Source: a virus (Duplodnaviria > Heunggongvirae > Uroviricota > Caudoviricetes). From it: 23,252 bases of DNA. How positions within the stretch are numbered: position 1 is the first letter of the stretch; each line of letters opens with the position of its first letter. The translations under genes and the position numbers were made by a program. Of the stretch, positions 1-21,320 are shown one piece after another. The stretch lies in IMG/VR virus record IMGVR_UViG_3300017917_004015; one strand, written 5' to 3'. Under the pieces are notes generated by a model. It ran no database searches. It saw nothing but the letters and a program-made list of their open reading frames with translations, and was not told the DNA's origin.

Positions 1-1432
1 GGGCTGTAATTCTAACAAATGGTGGGTTATTACCTGATAAACAACTAGCATTATAATAACCAGTTCTAATTCTATTACCCGGTAATTCACCGAAACCAAG
101 ATTAAAATCTACACCGGATGAAGTAACATGGCAATATGACATAATAGTACCAACTGTAGGTACAACAGTTGAACCACAAGCATTAGAACCAGATGAACTT
201 TCACCAGCCCTACAACTATCAATTCTACCAATAAGACCGTTACCAAGGTTCCAACCACACCAGTGTGTATGTCTTGAGCCAAAATTATGACCTATTTCGT
301 GAGCAATACAATAAACAGTCCAACTATACACTGAGACATCGTTTACATAAGTACTAAAAATATTACTATAACCAAAATTAGCTTGTGTACTACAAAGTAC
401 ATCAATATAGGCTATACCACCAGCATTAACTGAACGTGTACTAACTAAATGTGCTAATCTACCGTTGAATCCTGATGAGGCTTTATTAGTAGCAAAATTA
501 AATAAACTAGTTGAGTTAATATTTGTTGTTATACTAGCATAAGGGTCAGGTGTTGTATGTACAAAAATTTCCGAAATTACAATTCTAATACCTTCATTAT
601 CATATAATTGCTGTACTAAGTTAAAAACAGCAGTCATATAATTAATAGTATTTTGTACAGAACTTCCATTTTTAGTGTACATATCAAAATCACACTCAAA
701 ATAAATGGGTACGGTTTTACAACCCGTTCCACCAACAGTCATACCTAATTCACCTAATGATGAAGCTTGATTCTCCATAGTTTTAGGTAAAATAGGTTCA
801 GTCATTTGATATTTACTCTCAAGAGGTACGGCAGTATCATAAGTAATACCAGATGTTTTATTTAAAGTTTTAGGTTTTAAATCAGCTGCTTCACATTCAA
901 ATTGCATTTGCATATCTTCCTCTGATAATGAAGCATATTCATTTTTAGTACCTTTTCTTTTTGAGATGTTATATCGCTGTTTACCTTCAAATAAAATAGC
1001 AGTAAAATTATCACGATATACACTCACAACACCAAGTTCTTTATTGTTTTTTGGGTTAAAAACACGATAATGAACACCTATATCAGACTTAGTTGTTGTA
1101 TAAGTTTTATTTCTAGTACTAATTTTAAAAGGTTGGATAGTTGTTTTTCTAAACTCAACTGTTTTGATTTTACCATTTGGTTTAACAAAATCAAAAGAAA
1201 ACACATCTGGTTCATTCGTATATAAATTCTTTAAGACATTAGTATCTAATACTAGATTAAACCGTGTTTTTCGCTTTCTTTGTAAAGAATCCCTTTTTAA
1301 TGATTTTAATTCATTTGATAGTGCAGAATTTAATTTTGCATTTTCCCTGAAAAGATTATATTTTCTCGGTTGTGCATAAGCAAACGATGAAAATAAAATT
1401 AATAATGTTAGGATTTTAAAAATGTTTCTCAT
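1..1432 (-). CDS. Secreted zinc metalloprotease, reprolysin-like metzincin (M12B-like); 3' end runs off the window
   Basis: Manual minus-strand translation from ATG at 1432 is open for 477 codons to the window edge. It has a signal peptide MRNIFKILTLLILFSSFAYA|Q, a candidate cysteine switch FECEA (Cys codon 893-895), the zinc motif HEIGHNFGSRH (269-301) and a Met-turn GTIMSYCH (Met 140-142). Confidence 0.9.
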   Translation of the reverse strand, partial: MRNIFKILTLLILFSSFAYAQPRKYNLFRENAKLNSALSNELKSLKRDSLQRKRKTRFNLVLDTNVLKNLYTNEPDVFSFDFVKPNGKIKTVEFRKTTIQPFKISTRNKTYTTTKSDIGVHYRVFNPKNNKELGVVSVYRDNFTAILFEGKQRYNISKRKGTKNEYASLSEEDMQMQFECEAADLKPKTLNKTSGITYDTAVPLESKYQMTEPILPKTMENQASSLGELGMTVGGTGCKTVPIYFECDFDMYTKNGSSVQNTINYMTAVFNLVQQLYDNEGIRIVISEIFVHTTPDPYASITTNINSTSLFNFATNKASSGFNGRLAHLVSTRSVNAGGIAYIDVLCSTQANFGYSNIFSTYVNDVSVYSWTVYCIAHEIGHNFGSRHTHWCGWNLGNGLIGRIDSCRAGESSSGSNACGSTVVPTVGTIMSYCHVTSSGVDFNLGFGELPGNRIRTGYYNASCLSGNNPPFVRITA

Positions 1433-1891: not shown

Positions 1892-2061
1892 GTTGTAAAT
1901 TCATTTCTTTTTGTAAGTTCTCTCAGGAAAAAAGTACCACAAAACGGTTGATTTTCACTTGTGAGTTCCTTTCTTTTTGTAAGTTCTCTCAGGATACTCA
2001 AATCACCGATGGGAGACGCGTTTACTTGTGAGTTCCTTTCTTTTTGTAAGTTCTCTCAGGA
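1892..2061 (+). CRISPR. CRISPR-like mini-array: three 37-bp repeats with 29- and 30-bp unique spacers; no cas gene in the window
   Basis: Repeats at 1892-1928 (3 mismatches to consensus), 1958-1994 and 2025-2061, consensus (G/C)TTGTGAGTTCCTTTCTTTTTGTAAGTTCTCTCAGGA, period 66-67 bp. The spacers are unrelated to each other. A CRISPR identity is not proven because the repeat is also protein-coding on the minus strand. Confidence 0.45.
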
Positions 2062-2287
2062 TACCAGATGTTAAATCGTTGATTTCTTGAGTATTATACT
2101 TGTATTTAGTTTCAAAAATTCTCCAAATTTGTAACCAATTTAATCTAAACTCATTAGTTTTTAGATTATAGTATGATAAAGTACCGTTTCTATGTCTAAT
2201 ATCAATATCACCGTAGATATCCATACAAACCACTCCATCAAAGAGACGGTCAAGTAGTAGTTCTTTTTGTTCTTGTGTATAAATCAT
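2003..2287 (-). CDS. Small hypothetical protein, paralog copy A (94 aa); C-terminus encoded by repeat plus spacer
   Basis: ORF track; MIYTQEQKELLLDRLFDG...ILRELTKRKELT-SKRVSHR*; ungapped paralog of the last 98 aa of the adjacent ORF. Confidence 0.75.
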   Translation of the reverse strand: MIYTQEQKELLLDRLFDGVVCMDIYGDIDIRHRNGTLSYYNLKTNEFRLNWLQIWRIFETKYKYNTQEINDLTSGILRELTKRKELTSKRVSHR

Positions 2288-2598
2288 AAACTATTGTTTT
2301 GTAAGGTCTCTCAGGTTAAACCGCTACAAAAGACCTGCCATGTGGTTGTGAGTTCCTTTCTTTTTGTAAGTTCTCTCAGGATACCAGATGTTAAATCGTT
2401 GATTTCCTGACGGTTATTATCATTTTTATCTAAAAAAAAACTCCATATTTGATACCAATTTAACCAAAACATATTAGTTTTTGGATTATAATATGTTAAA
2501 TGTTCATTTTTATGTGTAATTTCAATATCACCGTAGATATCCATACAAACCACTCCATCAAAGAGACGGTCAAGTAGTAGTTCTTTTTGTTCTTGTGT
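2026..2598. repeat. 320-bp-period tandem duplication with two perfectly identical blocks
   Basis: 2026-2086 = 2346-2406 (61 bp identical) and 2202-2278 = 2522-2598 (77 bp identical). The 115-bp core between them has 33 mismatches and no gaps by manual count. Confidence 0.95.
2280..2381 (+). repeat. Second repeat-spacer-repeat unit of the same family (degenerate half repeat, 28-bp spacer, full repeat)
   Basis: Full repeat GTTGTGAGTT...CAGGA at 2345-2381. A degenerate copy ending near 2316 (TTTTGTAAGGTCTCTCAGG) matches the 3' half at 18/19. The spacer is 2317-2344. Confidence 0.8.
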
Positions 2599-2784
2599 GT
2601 AGGTCATATTTTTAAATCTTTTATTAAAACTACTCATATCAAACCACTGTTTACAATCAATACCTTTTGAAGTTTTTTTTGATATAAAAACTTCAATACT
2701 ATTTGTAGTTTTATTTGTTATAAAACAAATATTATTATCGGTATCTAAAACGGTTTGACCAATTGAAAAATCATCAATATTCAT
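2311..2784 (-). CDS. Small hypothetical protein, paralog copy B (internal Met at 2607), fused in frame to an upstream ~59-aa domain
   Basis: The ORF-track start (2841) is TTG; ATG alternatives are 2820, 2784 and 2607. The part from 2607 is MTYTQEQKELLLDRLFDG...ILRELTKRKELT-TTWQVFCSGLT*. Confidence 0.7.
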   Translation of the reverse strand: MNIDDFSIGQTVLDTDNNICFITNKTTNSIEVFISKKTSKGIDCKQWFDMSSFNKRFKNMTYTQEQKELLLDRLFDGVVCMDIYGDIEITHKNEHLTYYNPKTNMFWLNWYQIWSFFLDKNDNNRQEINDLTSGILRELTKRKELTTTWQVFCSGLT

Positions 2785-2806
2785 TTTATATGAATCATTT
2801 CTTTGA

Positions 2807-3865
2807 TTAATATAATCCATAATATTCTTTTCTAATATCAATTAGTAGTTTGTTAATAATTTCCATATCTACGGTATCTGGTAAATCTGACTTATCAAAT
2901 TGATTATCTATTTCATCAAGTTTTAATTGGATATCAGTTAATAATTCTTTAACATTGGTTTTACCTAATCGGATATTAATTAATTCTTGATGATTAGGTC
3001 TAAATACTTCAAAAGTTCCAGTAGTTGCTATATCATATGATACATCCACAAGTCTTTTACAATGCATTAAATTTTTTAAATCATACATTTGGTTATTTAA
3101 ATCCCATGTATATCTATCAGTATTTCTATTAGTAAGCCAAACTTGATATTGAAGATACTTTCGACAATGATGTTAGTATGCTTCAAGATTAAAATATAAA
3201 AGCCCAATAGATTGCTGACCCTTAGGTATCGATGATAGTCTAACATCATTTGATTCTTCAGTGCAAACACCTCTATAAACTAAATTAGGGTCAGTTGAAT
3301 AATACATATTATATTGGTTTTTTACATGAGGAATTCTAGCTAAACCAATATTTTCATGGTTAATATTATGAGTTTTTAAAAAATCTTTTAGTTCAATACT
3401 TTTATCATTTTCAATAATATAACAAAAGTCTAGTACATTTTTTCTTTTAGTAAAACCAGAATTTTTATCATCTAACTCCCAACGATATTTTTTATCAAGA
3501 TTTTCAGCTTTTTTAAACTGAGTTCTTGCATATCCAGCAAAAGAATTTTTACAAATCTTAGTTATAAAGATATTTCTTTTTTCTAAAATCCTATCCATAA
3601 TAGGATTTTTAATTAAAATATTTTTATCAGTCGAAAAAAGTAATTCTAACATATTAGGATTGCCCTTAGCGCAAAGTTCAATAAAACGCCCTACTTCATA
3701 AGATACATCATCGTCAGTATAGTTAATCTGAGGTTCATAACGATTACGAAGACCTAATAATTCATCTAACTTTAAAATATGTACCCTTGCATAATCAATA
3801 TCAGACGTTTCAATATTAGTTCCGTAAGCATGGGAACCTCTGACTACTTTATAGATTTCTTCCAT
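2807..3865 (-). pseudogene. RlaP/YcgL-type Pol-beta nucleotidyltransferase (PF10127-like) interrupted by a single in-frame TAA at 3173-3175
   Basis: N-terminal motif RGSHAYGTNIETSDID (GS..DxD). After the TAA the frame stays open (HHCRKYLQYQVWLTNRNTDRY...) into the 2807..3088 ORF, which carries the family-typical C-terminus YDLKNLMHCKRL...RPNHQELINIRLG...LPDTVD. Confidence 0.75.
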
Positions 3866-4278: not shown

Positions 4279-4403
4279 TTAATTTAATGTATGATTATTA
4301 AAATAAAAACGGGTTTAGTCAAAAGAAGTTTGTGTTTCATTATATGAAAATATAAGAGGATTTACACTTTCTACTTCTCGTCCTAAGACTTCCTAAACCC
4401 CTG

Positions 4404-4476
4404 TAACCCGTAGGGGATTCGAACCCCTGTTCTTCATCGTGAAAGGATGACGGCTTAACCGCTCGCCTAACGGGCT
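4404..4476 (-). tRNA. trnE: tRNA-Glu (anticodon TTC), 73 nt, CCA not encoded
   Basis: Minus-strand cloverleaf: AGCCCGT/ACGGGTT acceptor stem, GGC/GCC D stem, TCATC-CTTTCAC-GATGA anticodon arm, AGGGG-TTCGAAT-CCCCT T arm, discriminator A. Confidence 0.95.
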
Positions 4477-5572: not shown

Positions 5573-6358
5573 TTATAAATTAAAACCTCTTAAAATTATT
5601 TTTTTATGTTCATTAAAAATTTCATTGGATTCTTCTATTTCTTTTAAAGTAAACCATTTTACTTCATCTAAATCGTCAGAAGCTTTAAGTGATGTAATAT
5701 CTTTCGGTTCAACTTTAAAAACTGTTGTAATAATTCTATCTTTGGAATTTTGATAACGAATATCATTAATTTTATGACTGAATAAATACCTAGGTGAATC
5801 AACAATTAAATTTGTTTCTTCTAATGTTTCTCTAATTGCTGATTCTTCGAATGAATCATCCTCTACATCATAAAAACCTCCGCAAAGTACATATTTTTTT
5901 AACTTATTTTTATAACCTAATAAGATTTTATCTTCATATCTGATTAAAACATCCACAGTTGGTTGTCCACTAGCATAACGATGTTGGGTTGCAGCGTATA
6001 ATCCCAATCTAAAGCTATCATTAGGTAATACATCGAAATAATTTATATCAGTAGTATAGGCTAAATTTTCAACAATTTTAATATCATCATACTGAGGGTA
6101 TTTTTCTTTAATTTCGGAAATTATGCTATTTTTGTCTTTAAAAGCACTATATTTAAGTATAGTAATAGCATAATTATCTACCTCTTTAAGATAAGATTCA
6201 ATATAACAACTTGGTATTGGGAATTCAGTTGTGTTAATAGCTTCATTTGTCAATATAACGTAAAGTCTATCTGAATGTTTTTGAAAGTCTCTAAGTTTTT
6301 TGATAACTTCCATTTCATAGATAAACTGAAACCTATCAATTAGTACGTGTAATGTCAT
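5573..6358 (-). CDS. NadM-Nudix-like bifunctional protein with a degenerate N-terminal nucleotidyltransferase domain and an intact Nudix box
   Basis: Likely start MTLHVLIDRFQ at 6358 (compare GRFQPxHxGH, with HxGH absent here). It has the linker FRLGLYAA..RY...PTVDV and the Nudix box GGFYDVEDDSFEESAIRETLEETNL. Confidence 0.75.
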   Translation of the reverse strand: MTLHVLIDRFQFIYEMEVIKKLRDFQKHSDRLYVILTNEAINTTEFPIPSCYIESYLKEVDNYAITILKYSAFKDKNSIISEIKEKYPQYDDIKIVENLAYTTDINYFDVLPNDSFRLGLYAATQHRYASGQPTVDVLIRYEDKILLGYKNKLKKYVLCGGFYDVEDDSFEESAIRETLEETNLIVDSPRYLFSHKINDIRYQNSKDRIITTVFKVEPKDITSLKASDDLDEVKWFTLKEIEESNEIFNEHKKIILRGFNL

Positions 6359-6602
6359 AATTTTTTTTAATAAAATCAACTAATTCTTTTTTTGTTACTT
6401 TTATAACTTTTTCATCATTTAAAATAATATCTTGATATTTTTCAGGCACATCATAATGCGGTTTATCAGTACCAGAATGAAACCAACATTTTTTTAAACC
6501 GATACTATTACAATAACTGTGAAGTTCTTCTAATGTTGTAGCTGTTAGATGATAATATCTTTTTTTATTTTTAAATGTAGGTTTATTATCTATTAATATC
6601 AT
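6336..6602 (-). CDS. DUF4031-like small protein
   Basis: HLTATTLEELHSY...IGLKKCWFH....PHYD matches the HL.A....ELH.F...IG....WF....HYD pattern. Confidence 0.65.
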   Translation of the reverse strand: MILIDNKPTFKNKKRYYHLTATTLEELHSYCNSIGLKKCWFHSGTDKPHYDVPEKYQDIILNDEKVIKVTKKELVDFIKKNYDITRTN

Positions 6603-7054
6603 TAAAAAGGTTTGTCTAATAGTAAATCTAAAAAATAAAGTATTTTTTTACCTATTTCATCTTCAAAAGTAAAATTATATTTATTGGTAGCTCTTTCTTT
6701 AAACCATAACCTAACGTCTGTTCCAAATTCTGAGGCTCTTGCAGAGCAATCACAGACCATTTCAGCTAAAAATACATCAGGCATATCGTGAATACTATTC
6801 CAATGCTCTGGATGGTGTGAATTAGTTTCAGCGTGATGTCTAACAGCTTCTTCAAGAAGTGGGTCACCGGGATGTAAATGTTTAAATTCAAATCCATGAA
6901 ATTTAGAATTATCATGGATTTGACCGTTTGATATTAATGAAAGACCTAATTCACAATCGCCATTATTAATAAGTTTTTTACCTAATTTAAAACAGTTCTT
7001 TTGGACTTGTTGAATATGTCCCCAAATAATATCTATTTTATCTAATGTTTCCAT
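6602..7054 (-). CDS. HD-like phosphohydrolase (DUF5662-like)
   Basis: HDNSKF, HHAETNSHHPEHW, M....LAEMVCD motifs. The likely start is METLDK at 7054 (ORF track extends to 7126). Confidence 0.65.
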   Translation of the reverse strand: METLDKIDIIWGHIQQVQKNCFKLGKKLINNGDCELGLSLISNGQIHDNSKFHGFEFKHLHPGDPLLEEAVRHHAETNSHHPEHWNSIHDMPDVFLAEMVCDCSARASEFGTDVRLWFKERATNKYNFTFEDEIGKKILYFLDLLLDKPF

Positions 7055-7073
7055 ATTTATAAATAGTTTTAAC

Positions 7074-7382
7074 CTATAGATATTCATTATCATGGACATC
7101 AACAATGAAGTTAAATTTAATTTCATCTAAAAAGAATTTTTTAATATTATCTAATGTCTGAGTACCAGTTAAATTATATTTACGTTTTAAAGGTTTATAA
7201 ATTTCATCTGAACAAACTGAACAAATAGGTAATGAGTTATTCTCAAAACTAATATATGAACAATAAGTTATATGTGACTCATCAAAATCTATATAATGAT
7301 TCAAAATAAATAAATCTGAATTGATATCAAAAGTAATAGAACCTGAAAATAAATATTGTTTAAAATCCTGTACAAAATCCAT
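7074..7382 (-). CDS. Hypothetical protein (102 aa)
   Basis: ORF track; fills the gap between its neighbours. Confidence 0.55.
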   Translation of the reverse strand: MDFVQDFKQYLFSGSITFDINSDLFILNHYIDFDESHITYCSYISFENNSLPICSVCSDEIYKPLKRKYNLTGTQTLDNIKKFFLDEIKFNFIVDVHDNEYL

Positions 7383-7390
7383 ATTTTTGT

Positions 7391-8344
7391 TTAGAATCTA
7401 ATATTACCTTGATTAACATTAAATACTGGAATACCTAATTTTAACCAAACATTTTCAAGTACCTGAAGTCTATCGTCAAAAATTACTTTTACATAATATT
7501 TATCACGAATAAAATCATCAAATAGCTGAAACTTAATTAAATCATCACTTCTATTATCACCGTCCATTCTCATGAAGAGTAGATAATCATCAGGGGAAAA
7601 TCCGCACTTAGTTAAAAATTCTCTGGTTTGTTTTTCATAATTTTCACGTCTTCCAGAAAAAAATACAATTTGAGTACCATATTTCATTTGGAAATGAAGA
7701 TATTCACGAATAGGTTCGTTAATAATGTCATTTTCAAAATCCCTATGGTACGGGTTTTTAACTTCCCTATCAAATAGACTAAGAGTGCCGTCTAAATCAC
7801 ATATAATAGCTGGTGTAAGAGTAACATCATTATGATACCTAACATCAATCTTAGGTATAAATAAAGGTATGTTATTAACAATAAAATATTCTTTAATTTT
7901 ACCAAAAATATCAAAATGTTGTTTTAGATAATCAACGTTATATTCTAGTCCTTCTCTTTTTCGAAGATTCTCTAATGCTACTTCATAAGGTTGTTCAATA
8001 AAAATAAATTCAATATCGCAACGGTGGTTATATCTATTGATAATATTATCAATAGATTTCTTATATACATTATATTTATGGTCAGGACCAAAAAATGTTG
8101 TGTCAAGAATAACATTATTACCAGCATTTAACTGATTAAGAATCAGTTCATGTTGGATATCATTAATATTTTCTTCGATTTTTTTAAAATCTTTTCGGTT
8201 ACTGTATGTATTTAAATCTAAACCTAATAGAGTTCGTATATCATCACGGTTAACTCTGAACGTTCTATCATTTTCAGATACAAGTTTTTTACTATAAGTT
8301 GTTTTACCACATCCAGATGGTCCAATTAATACTGTTAATTTCAT
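7391..8344 (-). CDS. pnkp1: Polynucleotide 5'-kinase / 3'-phosphatase (T4 PseT / Pnkp1 type)
   Basis: P-loop GPSGCGKTT and RVNRDDIR in the kinase domain; HAD motifs DLDGTL, FFSGR and FDDR in the C-terminal domain. Confidence 0.92.
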   Translation of the reverse strand: MKLTVLIGPSGCGKTTYSKKLVSENDRTFRVNRDDIRTLLGLDLNTYSNRKDFKKIEENINDIQHELILNQLNAGNNVILDTTFFGPDHKYNVYKKSIDNIINRYNHRCDIEFIFIEQPYEVALENLRKREGLEYNVDYLKQHFDIFGKIKEYFIVNNIPLFIPKIDVRYHNDVTLTPAIICDLDGTLSLFDREVKNPYHRDFENDIINEPIREYLHFQMKYGTQIVFFSGRRENYEKQTREFLTKCGFSPDDYLLFMRMDGDNRSDDLIKFQLFDDFIRDKYYVKVIFDDRLQVLENVWLKLGIPVFNVNQGNIRF

Positions 8345-8604
8345 AATATATCAATGTTTGTAAAGTTTAAATCATAATCATATTTGTCAGTTCTAACTAA
8401 TATAGCGTGGTCTTTTAAATCAGACCATTTCATATTATTGTATAACCACTTAGCATTTTCAAGTGTATTATTTAACATTTTATTAACATCTTTGTTATTA
8501 ATATTTTCAAGTAAAACATTATTACTATAAAGTCTATGTCTAACTATTACCTCAGAATGTACTTTATAAACCTCCCCATTTGAGAATCTAAAAAAAATGA
8601 ACAT
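8341..8604 (-). CDS. Hypothetical protein (87 aa) inside the RNA repair cluster
   Basis: ORF track; 4-bp overlap with pnkp1 and 1-bp overlap with the upstream ORF. Confidence 0.6.
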   Translation of the reverse strand: MFIFFRFSNGEVYKVHSEVIVRHRLYSNNVLLENINNKDVNKMLNNTLENAKWLYNNMKWSDLKDHAILVRTDKYDYDLNFTNIDIL

Positions 8605-9038
8605 TAGTTTTTAAAAGAAATTGATGTTTGTATAAGTGTTTTTAAATATAATTTATCAAGTAATTGCGTTTTAAAATAGTTATATGTTAATTTAAATTTA
8701 AAAACTGACATATTTGTATTAATTAAACTTTTAATATTAGCAGCGAAATCATTAAACTTCTTATGACTAATATCGGTGTTTTCTTTCAAAAAATTATGCA
8801 ATTCATAATCATTAGCTTCAAGTAATTCGTTAATAAAATTAGCTTTATAACTTTGATTATAATACATTTTTTCGGTAGCTTGATAAATTTGGTCAAGTAG
8901 GTCAGTAATAAATTCTAAACTGACATACTTAAGCCCTTGATATTCAATTTCAGGCTTAAAAAAAGATTCAAAAAGATAGAAAATTAACCTATACTCTAAA
9001 TATTCTTTTTTAACCTCGGACATATTTTTTATCATCAT
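8604..9038 (-). CDS. Hypothetical protein (144 aa) inside the RNA repair cluster
   Basis: ORF track; 4-bp overlap with the ligase stop. Confidence 0.6.
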   Translation of the reverse strand: MMIKNMSEVKKEYLEYRLIFYLFESFFKPEIEYQGLKYVSLEFITDLLDQIYQATEKMYYNQSYKANFINELLEANDYELHNFLKENTDISHKKFNDFAANIKSLINTNMSVFKFKLTYNYFKTQLLDKLYLKTLIQTSISFKN

Positions 9039-10246
9039 AATCTTTTATCCAATGTTTCTTTTTCAAGTTTTTCCTGTAAAATACATTTAGTAAACAATTT
9101 TGTATAATCTTGGTTACTAGGATTAACATCTTTATATGGGATATTTAATAATGCGTTTCCAAGTTTAAAATCATTTATCGAAGCTTTAACTTTACTATTT
9201 ATACTTCTCTTTTCAAAGATATTATCATAGTTAAGATTAAAATCCAATCCATACACTAAAGTAAGATATTTGTTATTTCTAACTTTAAAACAACCGGGTA
9301 TTTCATGGTCAATAGCTTGCATTTGATTAAGGGCTTTAACCATTACACCCTCCATATTTTCTGATACGAGAGAATTGTAATACTTATAAGCTAAATCGAC
9401 AGAATTATCAAAATTATTCAAATCTAATGAACACTGGATATCATCAGATACAATACTAAATGTGTCTATTGTTCTAGTATTTATTTCAGTCCCATCAGTA
9501 TTAACTATTTTTAAAATACTAAAAGGTTTAAAATATGGTTTACCTTGTGTAGAAAAAATATCTAGCTGTTCATCGAAAATATTAATAGATTTTTCTTTAT
9601 CATTAAGATTATATATTATTACACTGTCAATACTTTCATACTGACGTACAATATGATGTTTATATTTCTTAATTAATTCTTCTCTACTTAATGAAGTAAC
9701 ATCATTAATATATTGTTTATAAAGTGGTTGGTTTTTAATTTTTTCTAGTTTACCCAATAAACTACTATTTTTAAGTAAATTTAGATGTGTTTTTTGAGTA
9801 TAAAGATAACTAAGAAAATCATATTCAATTAAATTAGCACCTAAAATAGACCAAGGTAAAAGTTCAGATTGAATTAAAATTATTTCAGCATTAGGATATA
9901 AATTAAACATTTTCTCATGAAGTGGTTTAACAGCTTCAAATAAATCATCTTTATTTAAATTTCTCCTAGAAATATAATAACCGTTTCTTGAAACAAACTT
10001 AGTTTCAGCTAGATTTTTATTTAGATAAATATCACAATATGAACCCATATATTTAGGTTGTACCAAAACATTAGTTATACCATGATTTTTGTAATACAAA
10101 AGTGCTTTGTAAAGACTTTCAATTTCATTTCGGTCTTTATCCTTAGGTGCGGGACTGATAGTAGGTGAAAAATGGTTAATTTTTTCAAGTCCAGCATAAT
10201 GTACCCTAGCCTCTATTTTTTCTCTATCGTATTCGTGTTGTTTCAT
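9035..10246 (-). CDS. rnl: RNA ligase of the bacterial Pnkp/Rnl (Hen1-activated) type
   Basis: Motif I QPKYMGS, SRNGY, ELLPWS, motif IV EGVMVK, motif V KVRNNKYLTLVYG (compare KCRGREYLRIIYG in bacterial Pnkp ligase domains); adjacent to hen1. Confidence 0.88.
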   Translation of the reverse strand: MKQHEYDREKIEARVHYAGLEKINHFSPTISPAPKDKDRNEIESLYKALLYYKNHGITNVLVQPKYMGSYCDIYLNKNLAETKFVSRNGYYISRRNLNKDDLFEAVKPLHEKMFNLYPNAEIILIQSELLPWSILGANLIEYDFLSYLYTQKTHLNLLKNSSLLGKLEKIKNQPLYKQYINDVTSLSREELIKKYKHHIVRQYESIDSVIIYNLNDKEKSINIFDEQLDIFSTQGKPYFKPFSILKIVNTDGTEINTRTIDTFSIVSDDIQCSLDLNNFDNSVDLAYKYYNSLVSENMEGVMVKALNQMQAIDHEIPGCFKVRNNKYLTLVYGLDFNLNYDNIFEKRSINSKVKASINDFKLGNALLNIPYKDVNPSNQDYTKLFTKCILQEKLEKETLDKRL

Positions 10247-11583
10247 TTTGTTATTACTACTCCTTGTGTTGGTGTTACAATTTTATTATTTGATAAAAGC
10301 TGGTCACCTATTTGAATGAAATCAATTTTATATGTAGTATCTTTGAAGATATCATTAATATACTCCCTAAAATCGTTTTGACTTAGTTCAAAAACATGGT
10401 CTTCACGTCTTTTAGCTGTATTGAGGTCTTCACCAATAAAATAAAATTGATTGAAATCAGCATCAGGTGTTGTTATAACTAACTTCTCAAAGTTAATGTT
10501 TGTTACTATATCAAGTATTAATTTTTTAGATACATCTATTTCATTATGTTCAATAACTTCAGTAATGATAATATTATACACCTCATCTGAATTATATAAA
10601 TCTGATATATTTTTAAGATGAATTAAATTACTACTATTCAGAACTTTATGTTTATATCTAGTTTTAAATAAATTAATTCGTTCTTCAGTTTTTTCATCCA
10701 AATCAAAGGCATAATACTTTTTATTAAAACCAAGATTACATAAGAATTTACGAACATACTTTAATTCTCCGCAACCGATATCAATAATATCCCTATCGAG
10801 ACCAATTTTTTCTGAAATACTATTCAACCGACAACCATGTGTATCTTCAAAATGAAATTTAAGTACTGGATTTGGAGTATCTACAAAATAATTCTCAAGT
10901 CTAGTCTTAACCTTTTCAAAAATAGTTTGTGTAAAAATAGCTCTTTTGATGAAAAGGTAAAACATAAAATAAGGTAAGTTATCAATATTTGTTAGTACCT
11001 TAACATACTTATTAACTAACTGTTCTTCAACAACAAAACTTTGTTCGTTAGTAATTGTTGTCATAAGACAAACCAATGAAACAACATTAAAAGTTTCAAA
11101 TATATTTTTACCTGTATATTTTAGTGAATACAAATTACCTTTAATTTGATTAACATCAAGATTTGGAATATATCGACTTAGAATGTATTTACCATCTCTA
11201 TACCAATTAGAGTCAATATAAAATAAAGGTATTTCAATTGTTGCCTCTTCTTTATCTAACTCAAGATTAGTTTTATTTAACCAAGATATTGTCTGTGAAT
11301 AATAAGTATGTTTATCAACTAAAAATTGAGGGAATAACTCTGAAATAAAATTTAAAGCTGCTTGTGGATTACAATAAGACTGGAAATCAATTAAATTATC
11401 AGAGTATTCAGCATAGATATATTTAAAGGTATCTATAAATATAACATTATATTCATTATCAGACTCTACTACACCAAATAAATTACCATTTTTATAGGTT
11501 TTGGTATAAACACCGAAATCAGAATTCGGGTTCTTATTTAATAGGCTAAGTAAATTAGGATTTTTACTTTTAATATTAATCAT
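10243..11583 (-). CDS. hen1: Hen1 RNA 3'-terminal 2'-O-methyltransferase with N-terminal ligase-activating domain
   Basis: N-terminal LSLLNKNP (compare YLLHKHP), SAM motif DIGCGE, metal motif EVIEH, TTPDADFN and REDHVFE (compare RHxDHxFEW). Confidence 0.9.
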   Translation of the reverse strand: MINIKSKNPNLLSLLNKNPNSDFGVYTKTYKNGNLFGVVESDNEYNVIFIDTFKYIYAEYSDNLIDFQSYCNPQAALNFISELFPQFLVDKHTYYSQTISWLNKTNLELDKEEATIEIPLFYIDSNWYRDGKYILSRYIPNLDVNQIKGNLYSLKYTGKNIFETFNVVSLVCLMTTITNEQSFVVEEQLVNKYVKVLTNIDNLPYFMFYLFIKRAIFTQTIFEKVKTRLENYFVDTPNPVLKFHFEDTHGCRLNSISEKIGLDRDIIDIGCGELKYVRKFLCNLGFNKKYYAFDLDEKTEERINLFKTRYKHKVLNSSNLIHLKNISDLYNSDEVYNIIITEVIEHNEIDVSKKLILDIVTNINFEKLVITTPDADFNQFYFIGEDLNTAKRREDHVFELSQNDFREYINDIFKDTTYKIDFIQIGDQLLSNNKIVTPTQGVVITK

Positions 11584-13367: not shown

Positions 13368-14270
13368 TTACTTAATTTTATCAAGAATCTCATTAACCGA
13401 ATTAATACGATAATAACCAACATTAAAATTCTTATTGTGTTCAGCTGTTAAGAGAAAAGTTGTTATACCAGCATTAGTTAATTCTATAAAATTTTCATAT
13501 CTATCATCAATAAAATACTCTATACCAGCCTTTTTAGCGGCATCAACTTTACTCATCTCCAATCCTACTGAATATACAGGTGCAACAGGGAAATTGTGTT
13601 TATCTAACCAATCCTCAGTTATTTTAACTGGTACAGACCTTGATGTGATATAACAAGTAGGGGTAAATTTTAATTCATTACCATTAAATTTTGGTGTTAG
13701 ATTTTCCCAAAAACTAATAGGTAATTCATTTAATCTTTGATACATTTGTCTATCAAAATACCAATGACTTGGAATAGGTAATTTAAATTTATCACAATAT
13801 TGACTTACAAAATTATTCAAGCAATCATCAATGTCAAGTCCTATTTTAGGTATTGATAAGTATGTTTTTTTCCTATTATCAAAATTAGGGTGAATTTTGT
13901 AATATTCTTTTATGAAGGCGGCATTTGTTAATAAATGGTCAATATGTAATAATGTACTTTCTTCATCATAATCATAACCTTTCTTAATTTCAAGAAGATG
14001 TCTCTCTAATGAATTTAAAACCTCCGTCCAAGGCATACCATTTCTCCAATTATCAGCACCAGATACTACTTCACAGATATAATCAGGATTATCTACAACA
14101 CCCTTTTCAAATCTAATAATTTCATTAGTTTTCTTATCTCTTAAATATGTTACCGTATATTTATTAGCCCCGTAAGCTAAGACCTGTGCAATACCTTCAA
14201 TAGTACTATTGGGTATTAAATTGATTGGTAATTTTCCATTATTAAACCTGAGTCCTTTTTTCTCTGACAT
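13368..14270 (-). CDS. Fusion of dATP/dGTP diphosphohydrolase (DUF5664 / PF18909-like) and HAD 5'-nucleotidase-like domain
   Basis: N-terminal GLRFNNGK..LIP...AQVLAYGANKY...NWRNG....NSLERHL...DEESTLLHIDH; C-terminal GLDIDD, YITSR, K, FIDDRYEN. Confidence 0.8.
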   Translation of the reverse strand: MSEKKGLRFNNGKLPINLIPNSTIEGIAQVLAYGANKYTVTYLRDKKTNEIIRFEKGVVDNPDYICEVVSGADNWRNGMPWTEVLNSLERHLLEIKKGYDYDEESTLLHIDHLLTNAAFIKEYYKIHPNFDNRKKTYLSIPKIGLDIDDCLNNFVSQYCDKFKLPIPSHWYFDRQMYQRLNELPISFWENLTPKFNGNELKFTPTCYITSRSVPVKITEDWLDKHNFPVAPVYSVGLEMSKVDAAKKAGIEYFIDDRYENFIELTNAGITTFLLTAEHNKNFNVGYYRINSVNEILDKIK

Positions 14271-19603: not shown

Positions 19604-20491
19604 ATGATAGGTAGTACTGGTATAATTAAACCTTCAACAGTTAGCGTAAATGATATTGAAATACTTTATAGTTATTCTAGTGATAGAAGTACTGAACCTT
19701 CTAATTTCATATTATTAGATGCTAACTTACTTATTAAGGAACGTTTTTTGAGTGATAATTCAGTTGAAAAAATTCCCGGTATGTATTTATTGAACTTACC
19801 TTCAGACATTTTCAATGAAGTAGGATTTTATTCTTTATATATTCGACCTAAACAAATAAAAACTAATATTGTAGATTGTGGTGTTTTAAGTTCATTACCT
19901 AATGTAAAGGGTATAGTTTTAAATATTGAAGACTTCGCTAATGACACTGATAAAATATTACAAGGTGGTTTATGTGGTTTTAGAGTTGAGTACTTAAATA
20001 ACGATGGTTCGTTGATTAATAATAAACATACTATTGTAACTTGGTCTAATAGATGTGAGGCTATCAGCCAAAATATAAATAACACTTCTCAAAAAAATAT
20101 TTCTTATAGATTTACTGATTCAGGTAATTTTTTATTTTTAACAGTAAATCCTTCGACAAACCCTTCGGTTCAACCATCTGTACAACCTAACATTGGTGTA
20201 GCAAATCAACAAATAATATTAAGTAATACATATTTTGACCCGGTACTAATTGATATTGAATTATCTGAATATGATATTGATAAAATAGCTTTAGGTATTT
20301 TTGGTGAAAAAACTCTAAATATTGAGACTGGTGTAGAAAATGTTTATACCAAAGATAGAGAAATTTATAAACAAAGAACTATATTTGATATCAAAGATGA
20401 AACTGGTAATCCATTATATAAAGTAGCTCAAAGTAATACAACAATAGACACTAGTGAAACTTGGGATACAATTAATGAAAATGTTATCTAA
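19604..20491 (+). CDS. Hypothetical, probably structural, phage protein (295 aa)
   Basis: ORF track; beta-rich composition; co-oriented with the gp15-like gene. Confidence 0.6.
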   Translation: MIGSTGIIKPSTVSVNDIEILYSYSSDRSTEPSNFILLDANLLIKERFLSDNSVEKIPGMYLLNLPSDIFNEVGFYSLYIRPKQIKTNIVDCGVLSSLPNVKGIVLNIEDFANDTDKILQGGLCGFRVEYLNNDGSLINNKHTIVTWSNRCEAISQNINNTSQKNISYRFTDSGNFLFLTVNPSTNPSVQPSVQPNIGVANQQIILSNTYFDPVLIDIELSEYDIDKIALGIFGEKTLNIETGVENVYTKDREIYKQRTIFDIKDETGNPLYKVAQSNTTIDTSETWDTINENVI

Positions 20492-21320
20492 GTTTTAAAA
20501 GTTCTTCTCGACATTTAATGAAATATTCTTTCATTTTAGGTGTTGTTTTATATTTATCAATATCCTTTAATGTAATCCATGAGTAAGCCGTGTGTTCATG
20601 ATTTAATTGTATGTTTTCAGGTTGTGCTGTCATAGCAACATATACATATACTTTATATTCATTTTCTATCGTTTCAAAACAAAATATAGGTTTTTTAATA
20701 CTAAGATTAGTTTCCTCAGAAACTTCTCGTATAAAACCCTGTTCAGGTGTTTCACCTTGTTCCACACCACCACCAACTAACCCCCATTTATTTGGTTCCC
20801 AAATATCATCGGATTTTCTTTTTAATATTAAAAATTTACCATCATTTATTATAAAACCAATAGCACCAACAGATTGTTTATCTTCTTCTAATTTAGGTTT
20901 TAAATTATTAATACCTAATTCATTTTTTATAGAAATTTTAGGTGCTTTATTAAAACTTTTTTCATGTGTTTTTTTATATTGATTATCAAAAACACCACTT
21001 TTAACCTTTTTATTTCTATCTAAATCCTCTCTATCAAAAGATAATATATTATTAACCCAATTTTTCATTTCATTTCCACCACGTAATTTATATTCAATAG
21101 GATTTATCTCTTTTGGGTTATATGTATCAAAAAAATTTTTATAACGTTTTAAATTTGTATAAGTTAGAAAAGGTCTACTAACTAACTTAGTAGCGGCTCT
21201 TTTACCTGAAAGGGCATCACTATTTTTTTCATGTCTTAATTTGGCTAATAATAAATTAACAGAATTAATAATTCCATCGGGTACTTTATAATATTTGTTA
21301 TATAATTTTTTATTTGCCAT
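20484..21320 (-). CDS. Nudix hydrolase (MutT-like C-terminal domain) with an uncharacterised basic N-terminal domain
   Basis: Nudix box GGGVEQGETPEQGFIREVSEETNL, upstream FLILKR...W, downstream LNHEHTAYSW. Confidence 0.85.
   Translation of the reverse strand: MANKKLYNKYYKVPDGIINSVNLLLAKLRHEKNSDALSGKRAATKLVSRPFLTYTNLKRYKNFFDTYNPKEINPIEYKLRGGNEMKNWVNNILSFDREDLDRNKKVKSGVFDNQYKKTHEKSFNKAPKISIKNELGINNLKPKLEEDKQSVGAIGFIINDGKFLILKRKSDDIWEPNKWGLVGGGVEQGETPEQGFIREVSEETNLSIKKPIFCFETIENEYKVYVYVAMTAQPENIQLNHEHTAYSWITLKDIDKYKTTPKMKEYFIKCREELLKLR

Follow-up and report, generated by a model that had tools for sequence, protein, structure and literature searches.

Two cas-less mini-arrays, probably of the Weeksellaceae type II-C class, within phage genes as putative crRNA mimics for host Cas9

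Repeats and spacers at the ends of two tandem phage genes

The DNA analysed here (referred to as the window; 23,252 nt in total, IMG/VR virus record IMGVR_UViG_3300017917_004015) is AT-rich (26% GC) and phage-like, and nearly all of its genes lie on the minus strand. Between positions 1892 and 2380 it carries five copies of a 36-nt repeat (R1 to R5 along the plus strand), which are interleaved with two paralogous genes, A and B, in the minus-strand order gene B, R5, spacer, R4, gene A, R3, spacer, R2, spacer, R1 (Table 1). Array A holds two spacers and array B one. R2, R3 and R5 showed no differences over a 33-nt core, and a search with this core at up to three mismatches led to four matches in the window and to none in 100 shuffles. 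The start-to-start periods of 66, 67 and 65 nt correspond to spacers of 30, 31 and 29 nt. The degenerate copies R1 and R4 are those farthest from their own gene body, and in R4 the replaced 5' half contains the ATG of gene A (2285-2287) and the kept 3' part the TGA of gene B (2311-2313). The geometry and polarity are those of CRISPR arrays, with near-identical direct repeats in the range of 23-55 nt, unique spacers of uniform length and, on the side away from the leader, a terminal repeat that has degenerated (R1, R4). No fold of the repeat was detected on either strand (z -1.4 and 0.06); type II repeats are expected to have no fold of their own. An Rfam search of the repeat (E<=10) revealed neither CRISPR-DR nor any other family.

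Table 1. Genes, repeats and spacers of arrays A and B in the window
Feature	Position	Strand	Description
R1	1892-1927	+	gene-distal terminal repeat of array A; 3 mismatches, all within the 5' handle half
Spacer wS1	1928-1957	+	30 nt, GC 0.30; unlike the other spacers
R2	1958-1993	+	intact; non-coding; out of frame relative to gene A
Spacer wS2	1994-2024	+	31 nt, GC 0.45; carries the tail codons of gene A and its TGA stop (2003-2005)
Gene A	2003-2287	-	94 aa; multi-copy phage family; leader position of array A
R3	2025-2060	+	intact, same sequence as R2; corresponds to gene A codons 77-87 on the minus strand
R4	2280-2315	+	terminal repeat of array B; 5' half replaced, 3' ~20 nt kept
Gene B	2311-2607	-	paralog of gene A; leader position of array B
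Spacer wS3	2316-2344	+	29 nt, GC 0.45; translated as tail of gene B
R5	2345-2380	+	intact; also the conserved coding end of gene B

On the minus strand, R3 and R5 encode (I)LRELTKRKELT, which represents approximately the 12 final conserved codons of genes A and B, and the adjoining spacers add the tails SKRVSHR* to gene A and TTWQVFCSGLT* to gene B, with 7 and 11 codons to the stop, respectively. The units behind the gene A stop are out of frame. The repeat-spacer array, the shared end of the paralogs, both tails and the out-of-frame units had all been reported in an initial annotation of this DNA, together with the location of the most degenerate repeats farthest from the gene bodies, and the same was found here with a repeat length of 36 nt. 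As tests of its proposal, the annotation had also named the possibilities that the spacers are diverged duplicates of one another or that the units always keep a constant frame. Neither was the case, as the seven spacers of the window and the related contig L001 showed no significant mutual similarity (best of 21 pairs p=0.06) and in the window the frame is lost through the periods of 65 and 67 nt.

Genes A and B are tandem paralogs that originate from a 263-nt duplication and are 86% identical overall. Comparison of 2025-2287 with 2345-2607 revealed a mosaic, with 96-100% identity over some 90 nt at the start and some 54 nt at the end and ~73% in the middle, a pattern that suggests gene conversion or recombination at the paralog ends. 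Next to gene B, a domain of ~77 aa (2611-2841, minus strand) runs stop-free and in frame into the gene, with the reading frame open back to 2841; it belongs to an unrelated and widespread family of small phage proteins with about 100 representatives, which elsewhere occurs as a separate protein of ~75 aa or fused to other domains. The 94-aa protein itself matched no Pfam and no PHROG family. Its AlphaFold model (pLDDT 79.5) has an alpha-beta4-alpha-alpha topology, in which residues 77-88, those encoded by the repeat, complete the last helix and continue into a stretch of low confidence. Everything past this helix was modelled at low confidence (pLDDT 63, then 48), with the lowest values for the spacer-encoded tail. 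Foldseek detected no PDB match for the fold, an Atlas search remained blank, and structural alignment with VIA-align led to a best Z of 4.6 with weak winged-helix and PqqD-like rows, which are not interpretable.

The spacers of the window and L001 have a GC content of 0.30-0.53, compared to 0.25 for the genomes. Protospacers for them were detected neither in a phage database, IMG/VR, JGI metagenome contigs and plasmids, collections in which this phage group is poorly covered, nor in five candidate host genomes, the CRISPR-cas contig of Empedobacter falsenii and the phage loci themselves. The four spacers of a related 93-kb phage had no match within its own record, and comparison of approximately 225 spacers from Weeksellaceae and Flavobacteriales arrays with the sequences of the window and L001 led to no match, the longest hit being 18 nt with a mismatch.

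The same layout in other phage contigs

Homologs of the 94-aa protein are encoded on uncultured phage contigs, with several copies per contig, and the succession of gene, repeat, spacer and repeat was observed at all loci for which DNA could be retrieved, namely L001, L002, L003, L023, L024 and L025. L001 (GC 25%) has five tandem paralogs and one array of three identical repeats, L002 (GC 43%) thirteen repeats and eight spacers, and L025 (GC 25%) five repeats; L003, which comes from a hot-spring sample (GC 28%), L023 (GC 24%) and L024 (GC 32%) show the same gene-plus-array layout. As judged from the retrieved contigs, this layout is a family trait of diverse phages. The periods are mainly 66 nt, and the GTTGT end of the repeat is gene-distal in five of the seven lineages (window counted). 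As the codons that end the protein motif, (V/I/L)-T-T/P, are the reverse complement of this GTTGT(G) end, the repeat sequence is dual-coded. A pattern scan of IMG/VR for the 66-nt period retrieved the contig of L001 and no other, and a search for the protein family in JGI metagenome contigs gave nothing, this collection evidently being without the window's own contig.

In the distant contig L002, two paralogs of 95% identity carry one and two entirely different spacers, respectively, indicating that spacers turn over faster than point mutations accumulate. Since identical repeats flank unrelated inserts of fast turnover, an insertion of spacers with duplication of the repeat is suggested, and not a tandem duplication. 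L002 also has an ORF of 760 aa (6001-8283) that spans five tandem paralogs and eight spacers. In the frame of this ORF the spacers contain no stops, versus five and four in the other two frames, and therefore translation through the spacers matters in at least one lineage and is under selection in L002. The downstream copies in L002 lack their own start codon; each array there closes with a repeat of deviating sequence, which provides the N-terminus of the copy that follows.

Similarity to type II-C repeats and tracrRNAs of Weeksellaceae

When 185,579 species genomes were scanned for the conserved 11-mer of the repeat at array spacing, a genuine type II-C locus of E. falsenii (Q1655 locus) was matched, in which an array with 69 repeats of 47 nt precedes cas2, cas1 and cas9. 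The first 16 nt of this repeat are those of the phage repeat (plus strand). On the E. falsenii contig (L005, ~1850-1990) one spacer occurs twice running and another one has a length of 18 nt, the latter being the only reason why a scan for a 66-nt period caught an array with a 77-nt period. Arrays starting with the 16-mer (at least four copies, at most one mismatch) were detected in 14 of 121 sampled Weeksellaceae genomes, compared to 2 of 401 in an order-wide sample. Single matches of the 16-mer in other Flavobacteriales genomes were discarded as chance matches in coding DNA, which do not lie in genes of the family. Genome G419 has a repeat that shares 23 of its initial 24 nt with the window repeat but 4 of 12 nt in positions 25-36, the latter being chance level. 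All matching bacterial repeats have a length of 46-48 nt versus 36 nt in the phage, and over its full length the phage repeat does not equal a cas9-linked repeat. No array with the motif and a 66-nt period was found in the 185,579 species genomes, and exact as well as degenerate scans with the full repeat gave nothing in IMG/VR or the species genomes.

In E. falsenii and G419, tracrRNAs were located beside cas9; both contain an anti-repeat and a terminator as well as a nexus that they share. For the anti-repeat of G419, duplex energies of -25.1 kcal/mol (R5) and -24.5 kcal/mol (R2/R3) were calculated, compared to -24.6 kcal/mol for the bacterium's own repeat, -11.6 kcal/mol for R1, -7.6 kcal/mol for R4 and -11.2 +- 2.8 kcal/mol for shuffles of R5. 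With the anti-repeat of E. falsenii the corresponding values were -25.9 (R5), -25.3 (R2/R3), -34.1 (own repeat), -10.7 (R1), -6.6 (R4) and -8.6 +- 2.3 kcal/mol (R5 shuffles). None of 300 shuffles was as good as the intact repeat, and R1 and R4 were at shuffle level. Hence the intact phage repeats are predicted to pair with the G419 anti-repeat no less well than its native repeat. The 5' handle would in this way pair with tracrRNA anti-repeats, the partners being those of candidate hosts and not of a proven host. The host-like part (positions 1-24) thus corresponds, almost without differences, to the crRNA handle of II-C repeats, which is the portion by which a mature type II crRNA binds tracrRNA.

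The polarity of the phage arrays agrees with that of the bacterial ones. In Flavobacterium columnare the GTTGT end of the repeat is leader-distal and base 36 leader-proximal, and transcription of the II-C arrays starts within the repeats and runs towards the leader (Hoikkala et al., PMC8092290). In E. falsenii and G419 the leader abuts the last repeat base (47 and 46, respectively) beside cas2/cas1, and the terminal repeat has lost its 5' half in E. falsenii and is altered at its 5' end in G419. Likewise, in the window the GTTGT end faces away from the gene, the decayed copies R1 and R4 are distal, and the 3' coding sequence of the gene occupies the leader position. The suggestion of the initial annotation that the array is polarised with the gene as its leader is therefore well supported by the leader side and the decayed far-end repeat of Weeksellaceae II-C arrays and by the published orientation. 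Because the gene is in the leader position, new spacers are expected beside it, where they would replace the translated tail. If the arrays are read on the plus strand, each spacer of the window has an intact handle behind it (R2, R3, R5) and the decayed copies would be dispensable upstream repeats. A sigma-70 scan for a plus-strand promoter recognised none and was uninformative.

None of the 27 ORFs of the window matched a Cas family, cas genes were found neither in the window nor in the 93-kb relative, and the same two sequences gave no anti-repeat or tracrRNA. Viral mini-arrays are likewise located in a viral genome and need no cas genes in cis.

Possible functions, known systems and genome context

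From the geometry, the polarity and the predicted pairing of the handle, the two arrays are with a probability of roughly 55% cas-less mini-arrays of the Weeksellaceae II-C class located in genes, and would most likely be read antisense to give crRNA mimics for host Cas9. The arrays would be transcribed on the plus strand, antisense to the genes and towards the leader as in II-C arrays, and the transcripts, consisting of a spacer and the downstream handle, would pair with host tracrRNA and load into host Cas9. Either Cas9 would then be retargeted to DNA that the phage wants destroyed, or tracrRNA and Cas9 would be occupied by decoys; within this explanation we roughly give retargeting slightly more than even weight and decoys slightly less. 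Spacers would be added at the gene-proximal repeat by host Cas1-Cas2, with the altered protein tail as a by-product of the insertion. Against such mimics count that no plus-strand promoter was recognised, that the collections searched gave no protospacer for any spacer of the window or L001 and the bacterial spacers no match to the phages, that ruler-type integration in a host with repeats of 46-48 nt would not obviously yield 36-nt repeats, that positions 25-36 of the repeat are not host-like, and that in L002 the spacers are free of stops in the frame of the ORF. The repeat is reduced to the part of a Cas9 crRNA that pairs with tracrRNA, and it recurs in many copies of the gene. If the RNAs load host Cas9, phages of Flavobacteriales could reprogram or jam II-C immunity without a Cas protein or tracrRNA of their own. 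A host with a Weeksellaceae-type II-C system is a testable prediction, and the question is raised how a coding sequence can act as a CRISPR leader.

An unlikely alternative is a type VI-B (Cas13b) array, which would be co-transcribed with the gene on the minus strand from the leader end and processed by a host Cas13b. The geometry of a 36-nt repeat with a 30-nt spacer fits such an array, a leader-distal GTTGT is common to VI-B and II-C arrays in Flavobacteriales, and transcription of VI-B arrays begins at the leader (PMC8092290). As the neighbouring genes are all on the minus strand, transcription in the sense direction is assured, and the Pnkp kinase/phosphatase, ligase and Hen1 of this phage would suit an RNA-cutting defence. 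However, the hairpin of Cas13b repeats is absent from the sense-strand repeat (-2.7 kcal/mol, z 0.06), and in this direction the sole spacer of gene B would be followed by the destroyed handle of R4, and array A would have the mutated R1 behind its last spacer. Moreover, the 66-nt period with the motif did not occur in any of the species genomes, and the 23/24 match is to II-C repeats.

Quite unlikely is a function at the level of the protein, in which the same insertion provides the ~90-aa protein with a new C-terminal peptide for each spacer and the old tails are archived downstream. It is in accordance with the gene in leader position, where any acquisition rewrites the tail, with the stop-free 760-aa ORF of L002 through five paralogs and eight spacers (no in-frame stops versus five and four), and with array 1 of L001, which is in frame across three repeats. 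We see little likelihood that spacer insertion serves to write peptide segments, which would be variable 10-aa linkers of a polyprotein in L002-like cases and a renewed C-terminal tail in the window; if true, the adaptation machinery would have been put to a protein-diversifying use. C-terminal tail swapping as the selected function, which was the central idea of the initial annotation, is opposed by the short tails of 7 and 11 codons, by the 65- and 67-nt periods that shift the next repeats out of frame, by stops inside the spacers of L023, L025 and one L001 array, by the low confidence of the modelled tail (pLDDT 63, then 48), and by the host-like tracrRNA handle on the opposite strand, which it leaves unexplained. 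A RiPP-like multicore precursor was also considered and dropped, because in most lineages the additional units either follow a stop or are not in frame.

That the arrays are not CRISPR at all, being a common tandem repeat of a protein ('false CRISPR') or the traces left when tandem paralogs underwent unequal crossing-over, is highly improbable: the repeat does encode a motif conserved throughout the protein family, the tandem paralogs have homogenised ends (96-100% versus ~73% in the middle) and the periods are often multiples of three, but the frame is not kept, the spacers are diverged duplicates neither of one another nor of gene sequence, the non-coding and out-of-frame R2 matches the coding R3 and R5, and the 23/24 identity to II-C repeats, the complementarity to tracrRNA and the polarity would be unexpected for a protein repeat.

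Among known elements, virus-borne mini-arrays (Medvedeva et al., 2019; PMC11656645) are likewise cas-less, with one or two spacers, host-type repeats and a presumed host effector. They differ from the arrays described here, in which a multi-copy gene with many loci per genome has the leader-proximal repeat as part of its coding sequence, in which host likeness is confined to positions 1-24 and does not extend to identity with the whole repeat of the host, and for whose spacers a match to a related virus was not detected. In the literature searched, viral mini-arrays are described but none within genes or with coding sequence as the first repeat. Racrs, or solitary repeat units (PMC10651486), are phage mimics of repeats that also engage Cas components of the host; they are solitary and intergenic, and as the present arrays have spacers and two coding repeats, they do not qualify as Racrs. 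The SRUFinder search used for them masks ORFs and deems intragenic matches probable false positives (PMC10651486), and because coding sequence is masked, arrays fused to genes would have been missed by published searches. The Racr paper (PMC10651486) makes no mention of tracrRNA, which would be the type II partner here.

With II-C arrays of Weeksellaceae and Flavobacteriales the phage arrays share the leader-distal GTTGT, a spacer length of 30 nt, 5' decay of the terminal repeat, and the initial 16-24 nt of the repeat with their complementarity to the tracrRNA anti-repeat. In contrast, the phage repeat has 36 and not 46-48 nt with unrelated positions 25-36, the phages (window and 93-kb relative) are without cas genes or tracrRNA, and the 'leader' is a protein-coding gene. 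RNAs of phages that load host Cas9 or other Cas effectors against immunity are also represented by vsgRNAs (bioRxiv 10.64898/2026.06.01.729453) and viral crRNA-like regulators (bioRxiv 10.1101/2024.10.29.618823). Whereas vsgRNAs go back to long-form tracrRNA and combine crRNA and tracrRNA in one fused molecule, the arrays described here have the crRNA handle only, together with full-length 30-nt spacers and located inside genes.

Concerning the remaining genes of the window, a PHROG nucleotidyltransferase and RNA-repair genes provide a phage-like context. The nucleotidyltransferase (phrog_388/RlaP-type; 2807-3865, minus strand) is split by one in-frame TAA at 3173-3175, and both halves match consecutive parts of the profile, which could be due to a nonsense mutation, a sequencing error or read-through. 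An alternative genetic code with TGA read-through was rejected, since the units behind the TGA stops are out of frame, and is also disfavoured by the TAA that breaks the sole interrupted gene nearby. A Pnkp kinase/HAD-phosphatase, a Pnkp-type ligase and Hen1 are combined in one chain (7391-11583, minus strand) and constitute an RNA repair set, and a tRNA-Glu is located at 4403-4476. Together with the RlaP-type nucleotidyltransferase, these genes point to a phage equipped against RNA-cutting defences. The nearest cultured phage, as judged from the SNF2 helicase, shows at most 29% identity and gave no clue to the host. A protein with the N-terminal domain of a dATP/dGTP diphosphohydrolase (13368-14270) and two NUDIX proteins (5573-6379 and 20484-21320), all on the minus strand, may be involved in nucleotide-pool editing or indicate a modified base. 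At the start of the window a reprolysin/M12-like zinc metalloprotease with an N-terminal signal-like sequence (2-1432, minus strand) runs off the end of the DNA, an uncommon cargo for a phage.
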